Below are positions 32,192-55,278 of a stretch of DNA of 64,000 nucleotides, one piece after another. The notes below the pieces were generated by a model. The model was not told the origin of the DNA. It was given only the letters and a program-made list of their open reading frames with translations, and ran no database searches. The stretch is from IMG/VR virus record IMGVR_UViG_2740892441_000001. One strand, written 5' to 3'. Source of the stretch: a virus. Its lineage: Duplodnaviria; Heunggongvirae; Uroviricota; Caudoviricetes. Position 1 is the stretch's first letter, and each line of letters opens with the position of its first letter. The position numbers were made by a program, and so were the translations under genes.

Positions 32192-32245
32192 TTTTCATCC
32201 TTGTTTTTATCAACATAATATGGCCGATCATGCGGCCATATCAGA

Positions 32246-44627: not shown

Positions 44628-46942
44628 TCAGATTTTGCAGGCTCCGTCGCACTCATCTTCTGGCTCGACGGCTACAGCTTGCGTAAGTGGATTCTGCGCT
44701 TCGTCGTCATCACGCTTTCCTGCACCATCTCTGGTGTTGTGGTAGTAAAGCGTTTTAACTCCCATCTTGTAGGCGAGAAGCAAATCTGACAGTAGCGTCA
44801 TCATTGGGACTTTATCGCCTTCAAAGCGAGAAGGGTCATAGTTGGTATTGGCTGAAATAGCCTGGTCAAAGAACTTCTGGATGATCGCCACCTTTGTCAG
44901 ATAGCCGCGGTTGTCCGGCATATCCCACAGGTATTCATACTGTTCCTTCAGTTTTTCAAACTCAGGCACGACCATCTTGACGATGCCGTCCTTAGAAGAT
45001 TTCACTGACACCGGGCCACGAGGCGGTTCGATGCCGTTGGTGGAATTAGTGATCTGGCTGGAAGTCTCGCATGGCATTTGTGCCGTCAGTGTGGAGTTGC
45101 GAAGGCCGTATTTTGCAATACGTTCACGCAGTTCTTCCCACGGCATCTTTAACTCAAAGTTGGTTTCGCCGCTTTCGTCTAATGAAGAACGGTAATGGTC
45201 GATCGGCAACTGACCAATTGCGTATTTGGTCTGCTCAAACCAGTCACACTCACCTTTTGCTTCAGCAAGTCGGCAGCTGGCGTCAAGAAGGTAATACTGG
45301 ATAGCTTCGAACGTTTCATGCACCAGTTTATTGCCAGCGGTATCAGAATAACGAACGCCATTCTTTGCCAGGTAATAAGCAAAGTTGGTTACACCAATTC
45401 CCAGGCTACGACGAGCTTTGGCAGGCACTTCGGCTGCCTCCATCGGATAGTCTTGATAATCCAGTAACGAATCCAGTGCAGCAACGGCATAGAACGCCAC
45501 CTCTTTAAGAGACTCCAGTGAACGGATGGCTCCGAGGTTAAAAGCGGATAAAGTGCATAGCGCGATCTCACCGTTCGGGTCGTCGGTAAATGCCAGTGGA
45601 CGGGTGGGTAGAGTGATCTCCATGCACAGGTTTGACTGGCGAACAGGTGCAAGAGCAGGAATGAAAGCGCCATGCTCGTTAATATGATCGACGTTCGCAA
45701 TATAAATTCGGCCCGTGGACGCTCGTTCCTGCATCAGAGATGAGAACAGCTCAATGGCAGGTACTGACTTCTTGCGAATTGAATCATCGGCTTCGTATTT
45801 ATGGTACAGCTTTTCAAACAGATCCTGGTCTGTGAAGAAGGCTTCGTACATATCAGGCACATCATGCGGCTGAACAGAGTGATGTTCTCGCTTCTGACGA
45901 GTCGACGGTACATTAGACGGTTACTCATGACGCCGTAATCAAGATGGCGAACGCGGTTTTCATCAATACCACGGTTATTTTTCACCACCAGCAGACTTTC
46001 AACCTCAAGATGCCAAATCGGGTAAAACGCTGTTGCTGCGCCACCACGAACACCACCTTGCGAACAAGATTTAACAGCCGTCTGGAAATGCTTCAGGAAT
46101 GGAATAACTCCGGTATGGGTGGCTTCACCATTGCGGATCTCACTGCCCAGCGCACGGATACGGCCAAAACCAATACCAATTCCAGCACGACGTGAAACGT
46201 AGTCGATAATTGCGGCTGAAGCTGCACTAATCCCTTTCAGACTATCGCCAGACTCAATCAGCACACAACTGGAGAACTGACGGGTTGGAGTACGGACGCC
46301 GGCCATGATTGGTGTGGGCAGAGACAGCTTGAACGTACTTGTAACGTCATAGAAACCTTTGACCATCTCCATACGTGTTTTGCCCGCGCAGTCGTCTTCC
46401 CAATTCTGGAACAGACACATGCCCACCAGCATATAGATATGTTGCGGGCCTTCGTGAATCTCACCAGTAACACGGTTTTGAACGAGGTATTTGCTTTGCA
46501 ACTGCACCGTAGCTGCATAGCCAAAAAGATCGTCACGTTTCGGCTTAATGTAATTGCCGAGTTCTTCGATCTCTTCAAATGAATAATGTGTCAGCAAATC
46601 CTTGTCATAAACGCCCTTGTTAACGTTCTTGACAATGTGTTGGTAGAAGTTCGGATAGTCGTAACGACCGAAGGCATCTTTGCGGATTTTAAAAATGTTC
46701 AGGCGGGCAGCCACCTGCGAGTAATTTGGTGCATCTGGTGAGATCAAATCAGCGGCAGATTTAACCAAAGCCTCATGCAACTGGCTGGTGGTAATCCCAT
46801 CAAAAATGCTGGTCGCAGCTCCCATTGCTACAGCGGATGCGCTTACACCACGAATGCCTTCTACGCCATACATTACGACGCGGTTGTATTTTTCTTCGGA
46901 TAACGGCTCTGTTTGGCCGTTACGTTTTACGATGCTTATCAT
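44628..46942 (-). pseudogene. nrdA: Ribonucleotide reductase class Ia alpha subunit, split by a frameshift near 45860-45900
   Basis: N-terminal ORF 45734-46942 and C-terminal ORF 44628-45860 (ending ...ECDGACKI) together are about the length of E. coli NrdA but in different frames. Confidence 0.88.
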
Positions 46943-50243: not shown

Positions 50244-50518
50244 ATAACACCTCTGATATCGTGTGTTAGCTTTTGGCCTTCTTTCAATCTGAACTCCGTA
50301 TGCGCCGGGAAGGATCTGCGCCTCAATACGCCTTTTCTTGTTAACCTTCCAAGATAAAACGCTACGGGATTTCCTTGTGGCGGGTAGGGCTTGTGAAACA
50401 TCACCGTCTGGCCTCGTTCAAGTCTTTTCATCGTGATGGCAAAGTCTCGAAAGCTCCCATAACGACTTTGCTTCACACAGCCTCCGAACTCTCCGCTTCG
50501 GTGAGGATTTCCTGACAC
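50240..50518 (-). CDS. Hypothetical small protein
   Basis: 92 aa between SbcD-like and SbcC-like genes; overlaps both ends. Confidence 0.3.
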   Translation of the reverse strand: MSGNPHRSGEFGGCVKQSRYGSFRDFAITMKRLERGQTVMFHKPYPPQGNPVAFYLGRLTRKGVLRRRSFPAHTEFRLKEGQKLTHDIRGVI

Positions 50519-51558
50519 AAAATATCCAATTTGCTCAGATCAAATCCGCCGTCAGTATCGTGGACAATCTTGCAATAAGCAGATACCGACTCTCCCAGGC
50601 TATCGATTTTGCTGGTTTCAGTTGTGCTGGCTGTCCCTTCCATCATTGATGACTTACGGATGAAGTTGCACACGACACCTTTTGCACCCATTGTTTTGAG
50701 GATGTTCTGGTACTTAATGCCTTCTTCATCGTTCTCAATTACGGCGCGGAAACGCACGTAGTTGCCGCGAATTTGGTCATCAGCAACATCATCTTCCAGG
50801 TTAATGAATTTAGGCGCACTGGTTTCGTAGTGACTGAAACTGCCGTCCGGGTTTACGATCATGTAGCCAGCCAGAGATCCAACATCTCCCCAATTTTGAT
50901 GAGTCAGTGCACCGACACTGATAACTCCAGGAATGACCTCTTTGTGGTTGTGGTAATGCCCACTAAGCACGAGACGAAAGCCGATATCCTTTAACTCCTG
51001 CGCATCGATACCGACGTCAGGCATTGTTGGAATGGCTTTGTTAATGGATGTATGGATAACAACGTCATGATTATCACCTTCTACGCTCTTACGTAATGCT
51101 TTCAGATCGCTGATAAGCTCCGCATGATTGTTACGCCAGCTAATCAGGTGGACAGTGACATCACCAATTTTTATTGAGTGTGGGCGTTTTCCACATACGA
51201 TTACCACGCCGATAGAACTCAGCGATGCTGCTGCGTTGGCGCTATATACTGAATCGTTGGTTTCAAGATCGTGATTACCGGCCAGCATTACTACTGTCAG
51301 ATCAAGCTCGTTGATAATCCACTTGTACGTTTCAGTTACGTAATGCAGAACAGAAGGGGACACAGTTCCTCGGACGTGAAATGTATCACCGGCAACCAAC
51401 ATGTACTTACAACCAGCCTTCTTCATGGCGATGGCGGCTTCTTTCGTTGCTTCCAACTGTATTTCAAGTCTGGAGTTAAGCCCCTCAGCGTTCGTCGTGG
51501 AGAACGCATCCCATTTGTGGTAGTGGCAGTCAGAAATGACGCCGTATGGCAAAGTCAT
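50473..51558 (-). CDS. SbcD/Mre11-like nuclease
   Basis: Start set at MTLPYGV; calcineurin-like phosphoesterase motifs (VAGDTFH, LAGNHD, GHYH). Confidence 0.85.
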   Translation of the reverse strand: MTLPYGVISDCHYHKWDAFSTTNAEGLNSRLEIQLEATKEAAIAMKKAGCKYMLVAGDTFHVRGTVSPSVLHYVTETYKWIINELDLTVVMLAGNHDLETNDSVYSANAAASLSSIGVVIVCGKRPHSIKIGDVTVHLISWRNNHAELISDLKALRKSVEGDNHDVVIHTSINKAIPTMPDVGIDAQELKDIGFRLVLSGHYHNHKEVIPGVISVGALTHQNWGDVGSLAGYMIVNPDGSFSHYETSAPKFINLEDDVADDQIRGNYVRFRAVIENDEEGIKYQNILKTMGAKGVVCNFIRKSSMMEGTASTTETSKIDSLGESVSAYCKIVHDTDGGFDLSKLDILCQEILTEAESSEAV

Positions 51559-51784
51559 GTGTTTTTCCTTTGTGGTTATTTTGATACAGATATTAAGTGT
51601 GTTTGAGAGGCGAACAATCCAGATAACACGGCCATTAAGAATGTTCACAGACACATGATTATGGCAAATTCATAGGTAAGTGAATACCTATTTTTATGGG
51701 CAACAAAGATTTCTAGATGTTACAAGCCACTCTATAATCGCAGTCACTTAATGATGACAACCAAACGAAAAAGGAGAACTGACG

Positions 51785-52288
51785 GTGAAACGCGTAATTA
51801 TAGGGACGATGGCCATTGCTCTGATCGGATGCGTACCAAAACCACCTCAAGATGAAAAGTCAGCTGGCGGGTACGTTGATATTTACTCCACTTCAAGCGT
51901 AGCAATTGCCCAAGACAGAGCCGACAAATTGTGTGGAAGCCATGCCTATTATGTCTCTAACGACAATGATTTAACCAAAGTCATGGGTAGATACGCGCCT
52001 TCATTCCCAAAAATCAGGTTCAACTGTGATCTTGAAATGGCCGCTTATCTGGGCAGCAAAGAGGCAAAGGAGATCAAAATGAAACGCATAGAGGAAGCCT
52101 ACAAGGAGATGTACAAGGCCCAATATGAGCTGAAAGAAGTGCGCCGTAAGAACGCTGATCCGAAGAAGCTGGAGTCTTACACAGAACGCGATCCGGACGG
52201 TACTATTCGCAGCTACAGCTTCTTGAATGGCAAGTCGTGCGAATCAATCGTGTACCCAGACGGCACGGGCAAAACGACTTGTGATTAA
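51785..52288 (+). CDS. Putative lipoprotein
   Basis: Signal peptide MKRVIIGTMAIALIGC with lipobox; RBS AAGGAGAA; terminator downstream. Confidence 0.6.
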   Translation: MKRVIIGTMAIALIGCVPKPPQDEKSAGGYVDIYSTSSVAIAQDRADKLCGSHAYYVSNDNDLTKVMGRYAPSFPKIRFNCDLEMAAYLGSKEAKEIKMKRIEEAYKEMYKAQYELKEVRRKNADPKKLESYTERDPDGTIRSYSFLNGKSCESIVYPDGTGKTTCD

Positions 52289-52290
52289 TT

Positions 52291-52325
52291 CTTCAGGAGC
52301 ACCTCGTATGGGGTGCTTTTTATTT
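52291..52325 (+). terminator. Rho-independent terminator (GCACCTCGTATGGGGTGC + TTTTTATTTT)
   Basis: Hairpin and T-run read directly. Confidence 0.7.
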
Positions 52326-52760
52326 TGGGTCGCGAAACAGCATGTCGGCCATTTGCGAGGATTTGACGTAGCACTTTGCCATCATCGGCTGACTAGGGTT
52401 TGATGCGATCATGTCGGACACCAGCATTGACCCATAGCCTTTTCCGCGAAGCTCTTTGACAATACTGACGGCACGGAGTTCAAGTCAAGGTGCGCCAGTC
52501 GGATCGAGTGCGGCACAGAACCAGATTAGTCCTACTTTTTGTCATCAGAACGATGCAGCAGGATGTAGATAAAATGCCCGGAGTATTGGCCCCGCTCGTT
52601 CGTCTTGATTGCCAGTCTGGTCTGCTGCTCAAAGGTTTTACCCCCCCTTTGATGTGAGGATCTCTTCGTAGAAGTGACCTTTGCGTGCGCCGTCCTCGAA
52701 CTCAGCCATGATAAAAGGCATGTCTGTCACAGTTGCTGCCCTTGAATAAAATTCACTCAT
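52326..52760 (-). pseudogene. GNAT-family acetyltransferase remnant with multiple frameshifts (one at a C9/G9 homopolymer)
   Basis: Hand translation gives MSEFYSRAATVTDMPFIMAEFEDG..., then in other frames ...VSIVKELRGKGYGSMLVSDMIASNPSQPMMAKCYVK... (GNAT motif A); homopolymer at ~52644-52652. Confidence 0.5.
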
Positions 52761-52816
52761 GTATTAATCCTAAAAGCCCTCAGTGTCTTTCTAATGCACC
52801 ATATTTTATGCCTCGG

Positions 52817-53479
52817 TTAAACCCTGAGATTACGTTTAAAACGTCTCAGTGGCTTTTTACGCGCTGCGTTTATGCTTATGACGCCAGCTTTTGGACGTGG
52901 GTCAACAAGGTTAAGCTCTTCTTCGCTGTGGTATTCGAGGTCGAACTCACGTTTTACATGTCTGATGTAGATTGCGGTGAGCAGGCTATCTTTGGTCAGA
53001 AAGTGTCCGTAGGATTTGCGGATCACTTCTTCTACCTTCTCGATTTTCTCACCACCCATACAGAGATGATTAAACCGGCTGTGTTTCCGCAACATTTCGT
53101 CTACTGGGCCTGAGTAAACCTTGTCTACTTTCCCAAAACGGATGATTTTCCCTGTGTCTGCGGATACGAGGCAAATCAGCTTGTCTGGTGATAAACGATC
53201 TCGCCACGTCACACCTGAACGGAGTGTGTTGAAGTAGGGCGCATCCAATCCGATGATCGGTTTACGAAATGCGAGCAATGGAACGTACCTGATACAACTA
53301 TTCAAATGAAAGTTCACACCAGCCTTATCAAGTTTAATTCTGGTTTCGTAGATCGGGCACTTCGCCGCTATACCGCAGATATCACAAAGTAACTTCTGCT
53401 TATTCAGGTTGGAATTTGATTCGATAGTGTAGGAGCCGTCCTCAAGACGACGAACCCAGCGCGTGCGTTTTAGATCCAT
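52817..53479 (-). CDS. Hypothetical protein
   Basis: 220 aa ORF with Cys pair CDICG; no family recognised. Confidence 0.5.
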   Translation of the reverse strand: MDLKRTRWVRRLEDGSYTIESNSNLNKQKLLCDICGIAAKCPIYETRIKLDKAGVNFHLNSCIRYVPLLAFRKPIIGLDAPYFNTLRSGVTWRDRLSPDKLICLVSADTGKIIRFGKVDKVYSGPVDEMLRKHSRFNHLCMGGEKIEKVEEVIRKSYGHFLTKDSLLTAIYIRHVKREFDLEYHSEEELNLVDPRPKAGVISINAARKKPLRRFKRNLRV

Positions 53480-53539
53480 AATCGTTTTTTCAGTAGTTAT
53501 TGGCCGATGCTACGATAACTCATTAGGCATACCTTAATC

Positions 53540-54220
53540 TGCATTTGCCTGTTTTACTTATCCCAGTTATCCACTGGATAGATCCAAATAAGAGATCCCA
53601 AGTAAGATCAAATAGAAGATCCAAAGAGATCCCCGATCGCCTCTAGCCGTTGCGGTTACTGGTCTGAAAGGGTGTTGCCATCCACTATGGAGAGCAAAGA
53701 AACCTCTGTAGAGAGCTGAATAACCGCTATGAAGAGTAAAACAACCACTCTGGAGAGCTGTATATATCCACTGTAGAGAGTAGAGCACATTGTCTTTTAT
53801 GGATAACTTAATGACTTAATTCTTCATTAACATACTGATATACATAGATATATTTTAAACTCTACTCTTAGTCATGATTCTTATGTCCTTAAATATCCAC
53901 AGAAGAGTAGAGTTACCTGTTCTTGAAATCCTCTGATTTTTATCCACAGGCCCGATCCAGTAATTCAGATCACAAAGAGAACCAAAGAGACCCATAAAGA
54001 CCCAATAAGATCCCCGCCCACCTCAAACCGTTGTGCCATCTGCCTTCAGACATGATCGATATCCACTATAGAGAGCGAATAATCCACTATAGGGAGCAAA
54101 GCAACCACTATAGAGAGGAGAAAAACCACTATAGACGGTAGGATAACCGCTGTGATGAGTGCTACTATCCACTGTAATCAGCAAAGGCCACCAAAGCCGT
54201 CGAATAACAAGAGACATTTG
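53540..54220. promoter_or_regulatory. Plasmid-type replication origin region: two arrays of 22 bp-spaced iterons, DnaA boxes, GATC clusters and an AT-rich segment
   Basis: Iterons (A/T)TCCACTATAGAGAGC-like at ~53681-53780 (5 copies) and 54061-54182 (6 copies); perfect DnaA box TTATCCACA at 53940-53948 plus near-matches at 53566-53574 and 53893-53901; 6 GATC in 53570-53640, 4 in 53960-54060. Confidence 0.75.
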
Positions 54221-54222
54221 GA

Positions 54223-55278
54223 ATGAGCGAAAACGGCAATAAAAACATAGCGATCGTTGAAGCATTTTCAGAAACAGATAAAAAGACAGGCGAAGTTGTT
54301 ACGTTGGTTCCTAACACTAATAACACTGTTCAGCCTGTTGCTTTGATGCGTCTGGGCCTCTTCGTTCCGACGCTGAAATCGACATCCAGAGGAAGAAAGG
54401 GGCAAATGGTCTCTATGGATGCCTCTGCTGAACTCAAACAGCTGTCTCTGGCAAAAGCCGAAGGGTACGAAGACATAAGGATCTCTGGCCTTCGGCTTGA
54501 TATGGATAACGACTTTAAAACGTGGGTGGGAATAATCCACGCGTTTGCCAAACACAAGGTCGTTGGCGATACTGTCACGTTGCCGTTCGTTGAGTTTGTA
54601 AGGCTGTGTGGCATTCCGACCGCCAGGTCATCAGCGAAGTTACGCAAACGCCTGGACAGTTCGCTAAGCCGTATTGCCACAAATACCATCTCGTTCCGTA
54701 GCAAAGGCTCTGATGAGTTTTACGTAACGCATCTTGTGCAAACGGCAAAATATAGTGTCAAGCACGATACGGTCGAACTGAAAGCAGATCCCAAGATTTT
54801 CGAACTCTACCAGTTCGACAAAAAGGTTCTTCTGCAACTCCGGGCTATAAACGAACTCTCAAGAAAAGAATCCGCTCAGGCGCTTTATACTTTTATTGAA
54901 AGTTTGCCGCCTGATCCGGCACCAATATCACTAGCCCGTTTACGCGCCAGACTTAATCTGACAAGTCGCACTATTACTCAGAATGCGACGGTAAGAAAGG
55001 CTATGGAACAGCTGCGAGAGATAGGATATCTCGATTACACGGAAGTTAAGCGCGGAAACTCGGTCTACTTCGTCATCCACTATAGGCGGCCAAAGTTACG
55101 CCAGGCACAAATATCAACAAAAATCGATAATGATGAGACGGAATATAGCCTCCCAGATGAGAATCAAGATGACATTATCGACGTTGTGCCTGACGAAAAA
55201 GAAGGCAAAATGGTCATGTTGAGTAAAGAAGAACTGGCGCTTCTCGAAGAGTTGCGCAAGGCAAAGACTCGCAAATAG
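54223..55278 (+). CDS. Putative iteron-binding replication initiator (RepA-like)
   Basis: 351 aa gene flanked upstream and downstream by iteron arrays; assignment rests on context, not a recognised sequence match. Confidence 0.65.

Follow-up and report, generated by a model that had tools for sequence, protein, structure and literature searches.

The segment 52320-52760 on the (-) strand of the virus record IMGVR_UViG_2740892441_000001, of which a stretch of 64,000 nucleotides (the window) was analysed, is in our estimate with roughly 90 per cent probability a real, fixed pseudogene of the SSU5_071-type GNAT N-acetyltransferase, carried by an SSU5-like E. coli phage-plasmid. It is an ordinary pseudogene, a member of the family by descent and not a functional GNAT member. 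A reading of the window made from the sequence alone (the sequence-only reading) had described a decayed GNAT acetyltransferase gene of accessory nature. Both points were borne out by the 89-93 per cent DNA identity to annotated intact GNAT genes (in SSU5 and in many plasmids), by four disabling lesions, and by the presence of intact orthologues in related elements (SSU5_071 and about 176 plasmids of PLSDB).

The locus and its intact counterparts

The window represents an SSU5-like phage-plasmid, and its GNAT region is 89.4 per cent identical to that of Salmonella phage SSU5. The counterpart in SSU5 is SSU5_071 (YP_006906703.1), a gene of 164 codons annotated as 'acetyltransferase', which is located between SSU5_072 (the orthologue of the lipoprotein gene) and SSU5_070; a metallophosphoesterase gene lies on one side of this group and a replication gene on the other. 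The window shares its gene order with SSU5 and with the E. coli plasmid CP088541, and the position between the SSU5_072 and SSU5_070 orthologues, near repA, is kept. Of the flanks named in the sequence-only reading, the lipoprotein gene is real, but the origin region lies one gene further off, with the SSU5_070 orthologue in between. The coordinates of these features are collected in Table 1.

SSU5_071 and its orthologues on pHCM2-like and on Enterobacter and Citrobacter plasmids (PHROG 15387) have the same position and orientation as the window copy, and the start codon, motif A, the stop codon and the downstream hairpin are alike. Unlike the genes of this group, the window copy can no longer encode the enzyme, being broken by a +1 and a -1 frameshift, a nonsense codon and a 54-bp deletion; the backbone flanking it is far more diverged from SSU5 than is the cassette in which it lies.

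Read on the (-) strand from the ATG at 52760, the gene yields MSEFYSRAATVTDMPFIMAEFEDGARKGHFYEEILTSKGG followed by a stop, then KTFEQQTRLAIKTNERGQYSGHFIYILLHRSDDKK in a second frame, and then, in the first frame again, VGLIWFCAALDPTGAP, a TGA codon and LELRAVSIVKELRGKGYGSMLVSDMIASNPSQPMMAKCYVKSSQMADMLFRDPK. The frame-repaired translation of the window copy comprises 147 codons as compared with 164 in the intact alleles. GNAT motif A, which the sequence-only reading had recognized in the pieces of the ORF, is indeed encoded there (ELRGKGYGSMLV).

Table 1. Features of the pseudogene locus in the window (lesions relative to intact alleles; bases of lesions 1-3 given for the coding strand, with the + strand in parentheses)
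Feature	Position	Strand	Remarks
Variable 1.25-kb cassette	51598..52845		Lipoprotein gene and GNAT pseudogene
Lipoprotein gene, intact	51785..52288	+	167 aa; lipobox LIGC; SSU5_072 orthologue; PHROG 18989
Hairpin, then T run	52295..52320	+	Between convergent lipoprotein gene and GNAT pseudogene; conserved in SSU5
SSU5_071-type GNAT pseudogene	52320..52760	-	ATG 52760-52758 to original TAA 52322-52320; from three-frame translation and DNA alignments
Lesion 4	52339..52343	-	54-bp in-frame deletion; junction within ATGCT microhomology between two ATGCT repeats
GNAT motif A, surviving	52419..52454	-	R-x-x-G-x-G acetyl-CoA loop; downstream of both frameshifts and of the TGA
Lesion 3	52485..52487	-	Nonsense TGA (TCA) for CGA (Arg92)
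Lesion 2	52536..52540	-	A5 (T5), -1 relative to A6; original frame restored
Lesion 1	52641..52647	-	G7 (C7), +1 relative to G6; frame shift after codon 40
SSU5_070 orthologue	52817-53479	-	PHROG 2105; directly upstream of pseudogene
repA	54223-55278		

Four lesions in the acetyltransferase gene

The lesions were defined base by base in an alignment of the window with SSU5 and then by comparison with 14 relatives. The sequence-only reading had counted three or more frame changes. This count has to be corrected: there are two frameshifts, whose net change is zero, plus one in-frame TGA and one in-frame deletion of 54 bp, the last of which was missed because it is not visible without a reference sequence. 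A frameshift in a homopolymer is present as claimed, but the run is C7 at 52641-52647, not about nine C/G at 52644-52652; it is the only homopolymer of at least six bases within 52281-52800. The 54-bp deletion takes out residues 141-158 (LKRRGFHLFDTSPKGTQM), including the invariant MLKRRGF block. Projected on the secondary structure of the model described below, strand beta6 is lost together with the last part of helix alpha4 and the first part of beta7. Among the observed alleles none was found that would be intermediate and could order the four lesions.

The window allele has kept its start codon and an AGGA element resembling a Shine-Dalgarno sequence. Translation from the start codon gives at most 75, 40, 93 and 76 aa for alleles with G6, G7, G8 and G9, respectively, and none of these products reaches motif A. 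No observed allele of the window's E. coli lineage can give a functional acetyltransferase.

Comparison with eight related plasmids

Eight E. coli plasmid records were aligned with the window (CP088541, KP792123, CP057251, CP058309, MG825385, AP027545, CP057560 and CP182204). Their sources are human blood (Korea), cattle and sheep faeces (UK), a giant panda and a rabbit farm (both China), a chicken, a human (Ecuador) and a laboratory strain. The -1 A lesion, the TGA codon and the 54-bp deletion were found in all eight. The length of the G tract is 7 in the window and in four records, 8 in three and 9 in one, and the records are otherwise 99.3-99.9 per cent identical at the GNAT region. The eight relatives constitute one plasmid lineage (about 99 per cent identical); they vouch for the reality of the lesions but represent a single evolutionary event. 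The sequence-only reading had named an intact ORF on resequencing as the result that would overturn it. Such an outcome is excluded, since three of the four lesions are common to eight independently sequenced E. coli plasmids and no tract length opens the frame.

It is hardly credible, therefore, that errors of sequencing or assembly account for the disruptions and that the gene is in reality intact. The window does contain many apparent errors of a kind that could suggest this. Compared with the 98.9 per cent identical CP088541, it is one base short in short homopolymers at 32203, 35123, 35268, 35959, 39398, 40532, 45867, 48083, 52850 and 62027. In every case of this series the base is missing from the window, from a run of two or three bases, and six of these deletions hit genes that are intact in CP088541. 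The nrdA gene, for instance, is split at 45867 into ORFs 44628-45860 and 45734-46942, and other single-base deletions fall in a dihydrofolate reductase (DHFR) gene and in an exonuclease gene. These deletions look like a systematic homopolymer sequencing error in the window, and two of the four GNAT lesions also sit in homopolymers. On the other hand, homopolymer errors do not produce a TGA substitution or a 54-bp deletion, three lesions recur in eight independent assemblies, and the RefSeq/GenBank records of near-identical E. coli plasmids have no annotated feature under the GNAT match. Because single bases seem to be missing from homopolymers elsewhere in the window, its own G-tract length of 7 may be off by about one base. 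As the window carries probable homopolymer errors, other apparent frameshifts in it should not be taken for biology without comparison to relatives.

Such a deletion also affects the neighbouring SSU5_070 orthologue, which has 220 aa in the window and 214 aa in all relatives. The private 1-bp deletion reported at 52850 (GGG>GG on the + strand) changes its C-terminus from ...RKKPTETF to ...RKKPLRRFKRNLRV and is probably a homopolymer sequencing error.

Tract length and the question of residual products

Variation in the length of a poly-G tract between near-identical isolates is also a feature of bacterial contingency loci and of pseudogenes with homopolymer tracts, and the locus could be viewed as a phase-variable gene in which slippage in the poly-G switches the acetyltransferase on and off. 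The variable tract (7, 8 or 9) in plasmids that hardly differ elsewhere at the locus fits this view, as does the G6 tract that intact SSU5-type alleles have at the same place. What makes it very improbable is that a full-length open frame was not found at any tract length: translation of G6 and G9 alleles ends at the -1 A lesion after 75-76 aa, and further downstream lie the TGA and the deletion of the MLKRRGF block. Unlike in contingency loci, switching at the G tract of the window cannot restore function, as three further lesions remain. Moreover, in the intact alleles on other E. coli plasmids the tract is interrupted (GGTTAG and similar), so it is not a conserved feature.

We consider it extremely improbable that a product is still made, either by programmed frameshifting (+1, then -1) combined with stop read-through, or in the form of a functional N-terminal peptide of 40 aa. 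The cancelling frameshifts and the retained start codon and AGGA element would be compatible with this, and gene callers did predict a 93-aa ORF in G8 alleles (P0027). However, the full product would require two recoding events and read-through of the TGA, and would even then lack beta6 and the adjoining parts of alpha4 and beta7. The length of the N-terminal ORF (40, 93 or 76 aa) and its C-terminal sequence vary with the tract, which leaves no single conserved peptide, and no RNA family was found in an Rfam search of 51500-54300 (E <= 1). A dead gene remains the preferred reading of the locus.

The intact family

The properties of the ancestral protein can be read from the intact orthologues. 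SSU5_071 passed the cut-off of the Pfam family PF00583 (clan CL0257) at the borderline (21.0 bits, cut-off 20.7), and its scores with the PF13508, PF13673 and FR47 profiles were below the cut-offs. PHROG 15387 ('acetyltransferase') matches SSU5_071 end to end (1.6e-108). NCBIfam gave only sub-threshold matches (to N-acetylglutamate synthase and ArsN2 models), thus no subfamily can be assigned, and in a search of PDB sequences with the intact protein the best match had E = 0.36. The motif A consensus Q/R-x-x-G-x-G/A is satisfied by R-G-K-G-Y-G within the motif segment. In an alignment of 14 full-length members G106, K107, G108 and G110 are invariant; so are the MLKRRGF block, P153, G155 and Q157, all of which fall inside the segment deleted in the window.

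The AlphaFold2 model of the intact orthologue (P0001) has a pLDDT of 91.5 and a pTM of 0.82, and its elements follow the GNAT order beta1-alpha1-alpha2-beta2-4-alpha3-beta5-alpha4-beta6-7. A Foldseek search against the PDB returned 590 matches at E <= 0.001. The best 50 of the 590 are all GNAT enzymes, with a probability of 1.0 to many, and the TM-scores of the GNAT matches are 0.6-0.74; no GNAT subfamily stands out among them. The predicted GNAT fold and the R-x-x-G-x-G loop are common to the intact orthologue and to solved GNATs such as SpeG, the phosphinothricin acetyltransferase-like 1vhs, RimL/RimJ and Naa50/Naa60, whereas the sequence identity is only 8-20 per cent. The ancestral protein is a 164-aa single-domain GNAT acetyltransferase, which we infer to have been an acetyl-CoA-dependent N-acetyltransferase. 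A complete domain of this kind is missing from the window copy, which is broken by the two frameshifts, the TGA and the 54-bp deletion.

The GNAT toxins TacT, AtaT, ItaT and KacT are likewise small single-domain GNATs found on plasmids. AtaT appeared at rank 45 of the structural matches, but the match was no better than to any other GNAT. A GNAT toxin-antitoxin module was rejected, as there is no adjacent small co-oriented antitoxin gene (RHH or DUF1778). The only co-oriented neighbour encodes the protein of 214-220 aa mentioned above, which has no Pfam, NCBIfam or PADLOC match and persists in relatives that have no GNAT gene; there is no co-inheritance. Among the titles and abstracts listed for SSU5, phage-plasmids and acetyltransferases none deals with the SSU5_071-type gene, and this accessory GNAT gene is little studied.

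Probable cassette exchange and timing of the decay

The pseudogene and the lipoprotein gene form a variable unit. The unit is absent from the E. coli phages PhiR41_1 and CMS-2020a. In PhiR41_1 about 225 bp of unrelated DNA take the place of window positions 51598-52845, and the flanks are 98.5 per cent (left, 50400-51597) and 91 per cent (right, 52846-53668) identical to those of the window.

Synonymous divergence (dS) between the window and SSU5 was 0.25 for the lipoprotein gene and 0.30 for the frame-repaired GNAT gene of the cassette, 0.77 for repA, 2.1 for the SSU5_070 orthologue and about 3.8 (saturated) for the metallophosphoesterase gene, the last two belonging to the backbone. The values in the cassette are thus about 10-fold lower than those in the adjacent backbone genes (0.25-0.30 versus 2.1-3.8). 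Judged by these sequence comparisons, such a sharp discontinuity between cassette and flanks implies that the cassette was exchanged horizontally between diverged phage-plasmid backbones. The low divergence of the cassette could in part come from stronger constraint and not from transfer, but a difference of this size at synonymous sites argues against it.

The dN/dS ratio of the frame-repaired window GNAT in comparisons with the SSU5, Salmonella and Citrobacter alleles was 0.10-0.12, which is indistinguishable from the 0.08-0.10 obtained between intact GNAT alleles. Most of the divergence therefore predates the inactivation, and GNAT function was lost recently as compared with the divergence from the SSU5 allele. 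The lipoprotein gene of the window is intact (100 per cent identical to an annotated CDS), and its dN/dS relative to SSU5 is 0.03.

These observations suggest the following course of events. An ancestral 164-aa GNAT gene and a convergent lipoprotein gene made up a two-gene accessory cassette, which is flanked by the metallophosphoesterase gene and the SSU5_070 orthologue and lies close to the plasmid origin. The E. coli lineage would have acquired or exchanged this cassette by recombination, probably from a relative of the Salmonella/Enterobacter type. After arrival, the lipoprotein gene was kept by purifying selection and the GNAT function was lost. The damage arose by slippage of +1 in G6, slippage of -1 in A6, a CGA>TGA change and a microhomology-mediated deletion of 54 bp, by which the best-conserved block of the family was removed. 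The G tract (7, 8 or 9) would now be drifting neutrally, and the loss itself was presumably neutral.

For biology at large the pseudogene matters little. It offers a small evolutionary example of a cassette exchanged between diverged backbones whose two genes met with different fates, and the four lesions are a clean marker of one clade of SSU5-like phage-plasmids in E. coli that has spread worldwide. In the records of the near-identical E. coli plasmids the region should be annotated as a GNAT pseudogene.

Distribution of the gene and possible selection for its loss

The family is narrowly distributed. A search of 5.8 billion non-redundant proteins gave only 27 clusters, all of them at least 57 per cent identical over the best aligned segment and most of them on contigs of about 85-113 kb. 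GNAT DNA was matched in 183 plasmids of PLSDB (Enterobacter 89, Salmonella 46, Escherichia 22, Citrobacter 21, Yersinia 0). The decayed allele (>=99 per cent identity) is present in 7 of the 183, all from E. coli. The other 176 plasmids match at 80-95 per cent identity, are without the lesions of the window and are mostly annotated as 'GNAT family N-acetyltransferase'. The lipoprotein gene was matched in 106 PLSDB plasmids.

In 5,426 complete E. coli genomes a near-identity search detected GNAT DNA on 14 plasmids and on no chromosome, and among 185,579 species-representative genomes there were only four loci (two in Kluyvera, one each in Rahnella and Buttiauxella), all on contigs of 58-109 kb. 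The origin from a host chromosome that the sequence-only reading had offered as an alternative is thus not supported: the intact orthologues that it proposed to look for were found in related elements, on plasmids and plasmid-sized contigs, and none was found on chromosomes.

The SSU5_070 orthologue was found in 459 PLSDB plasmids. Its counts are close to those of GNAT DNA in Enterobacter (88 versus 89) and Salmonella (44 versus 46), and differ from them widely in E. coli (226 versus 22) and Yersinia (63 versus 0); most E. coli and all Yersinia relatives are therefore without the GNAT gene. This distribution raises the question whether the loss was selected and not neutral, the enzyme being harmful or useless in E. 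coli, so that phage-plasmids there lack the gene or carry a dead copy. In line with this, 7 of the 22 E. coli GNAT plasmids have the decayed allele, the intact copies that were inspected lie in other contexts, and the partner lipoprotein gene has stayed intact under strong constraint. But the pattern is confounded with the phylogeny of the backbones, as those of E. coli type and of Salmonella type differ at dS above 2. In addition, intact copies do occur on other E. coli plasmids, decay is seen also outside E. coli, in Buttiauxella and Enterobacter, and the four lesions are what neutral decay produces. We therefore regard selected loss as unlikely.

In a more far-reaching version, which is decidedly speculative and which we rate as quite improbable, a mobile lipoprotein-GNAT cassette would hop between very diverged SSU5-like backbones, and in E. 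coli and Yersinia the GNAT gene would be counter-selected (lost, never acquired or killed) while the lipoprotein gene is kept. If this were true, the target of the GNAT enzyme would be host-specific and relevant for fitness, and the G6 tract of the intact alleles would be the first site of switching off. Neutral decay after cassette exchange remains our preferred explanation.

The SSU5_071-type GNAT gene has been lost repeatedly across the family. In Buttiauxella gaviniae (NZ_LXEP01000001, locus 2501-2909) there is an independent, out-of-frame deletion of 83 bp with TGC microhomology. Frameshifted or truncated, internally deleted or fused variants occur in Enterobacter, Salmonella and E. coli (P0003, P0011, P0019 and P0023-P0026).

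Intact GNAT copies are carried by the E. coli plasmids CP148484, CP060062 and CP025855 (85-101 kb; 84-90 per cent protein identity) in unrelated contexts, where the neighbours are IS1, IS4 and IS66 remnants and a yacAB (RelE/ParE) toxin-antitoxin pair. In these three plasmids the homology with the window extends no further than about 60 bp upstream of the GNAT start codon, which shows that the GNAT gene also travels without its lipoprotein partner.

Surroundings of the pseudogene

The hairpin between the two convergent genes, with its T run, is terminator-like in sequence and may serve the lipoprotein gene. A promoter scan showed no enrichment over shuffled sequences. With the GNAT protein and both neighbours PADLOC gave no match to a defence system, a HamB match (E = 0.0036, 13 bits) being noise.

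Upstream of repA, the origin region (53568-54180) has two clusters of iterons, at 53680-53780 and 54061-54180, with a spacing of 21 bp and the core ATCCACTATAGAGAG. Repeats of AGAyCCAAAGAGAyCC spaced by 10 bp are also found in the origin region, at 53617-53632 and 53978-54013.

Accessory DNA seems to collect preferentially at the site of the cassette. An IS91-family transposase gene (WP_000948429.1) adjoins the cassette in MG825385 (1-113), CP182204 (1-143) and AP045804 (1-504). Homology to the window starts at 52184 in MG825385 and at 52114 in CP182204, and the lipoprotein gene is truncated in both. In AP045804 only fragments of about 70-80 bp near the 3' end of the pseudogene are present (window 52276-52343 and 52339-52420), beside IS91 and an autotransporter gene.
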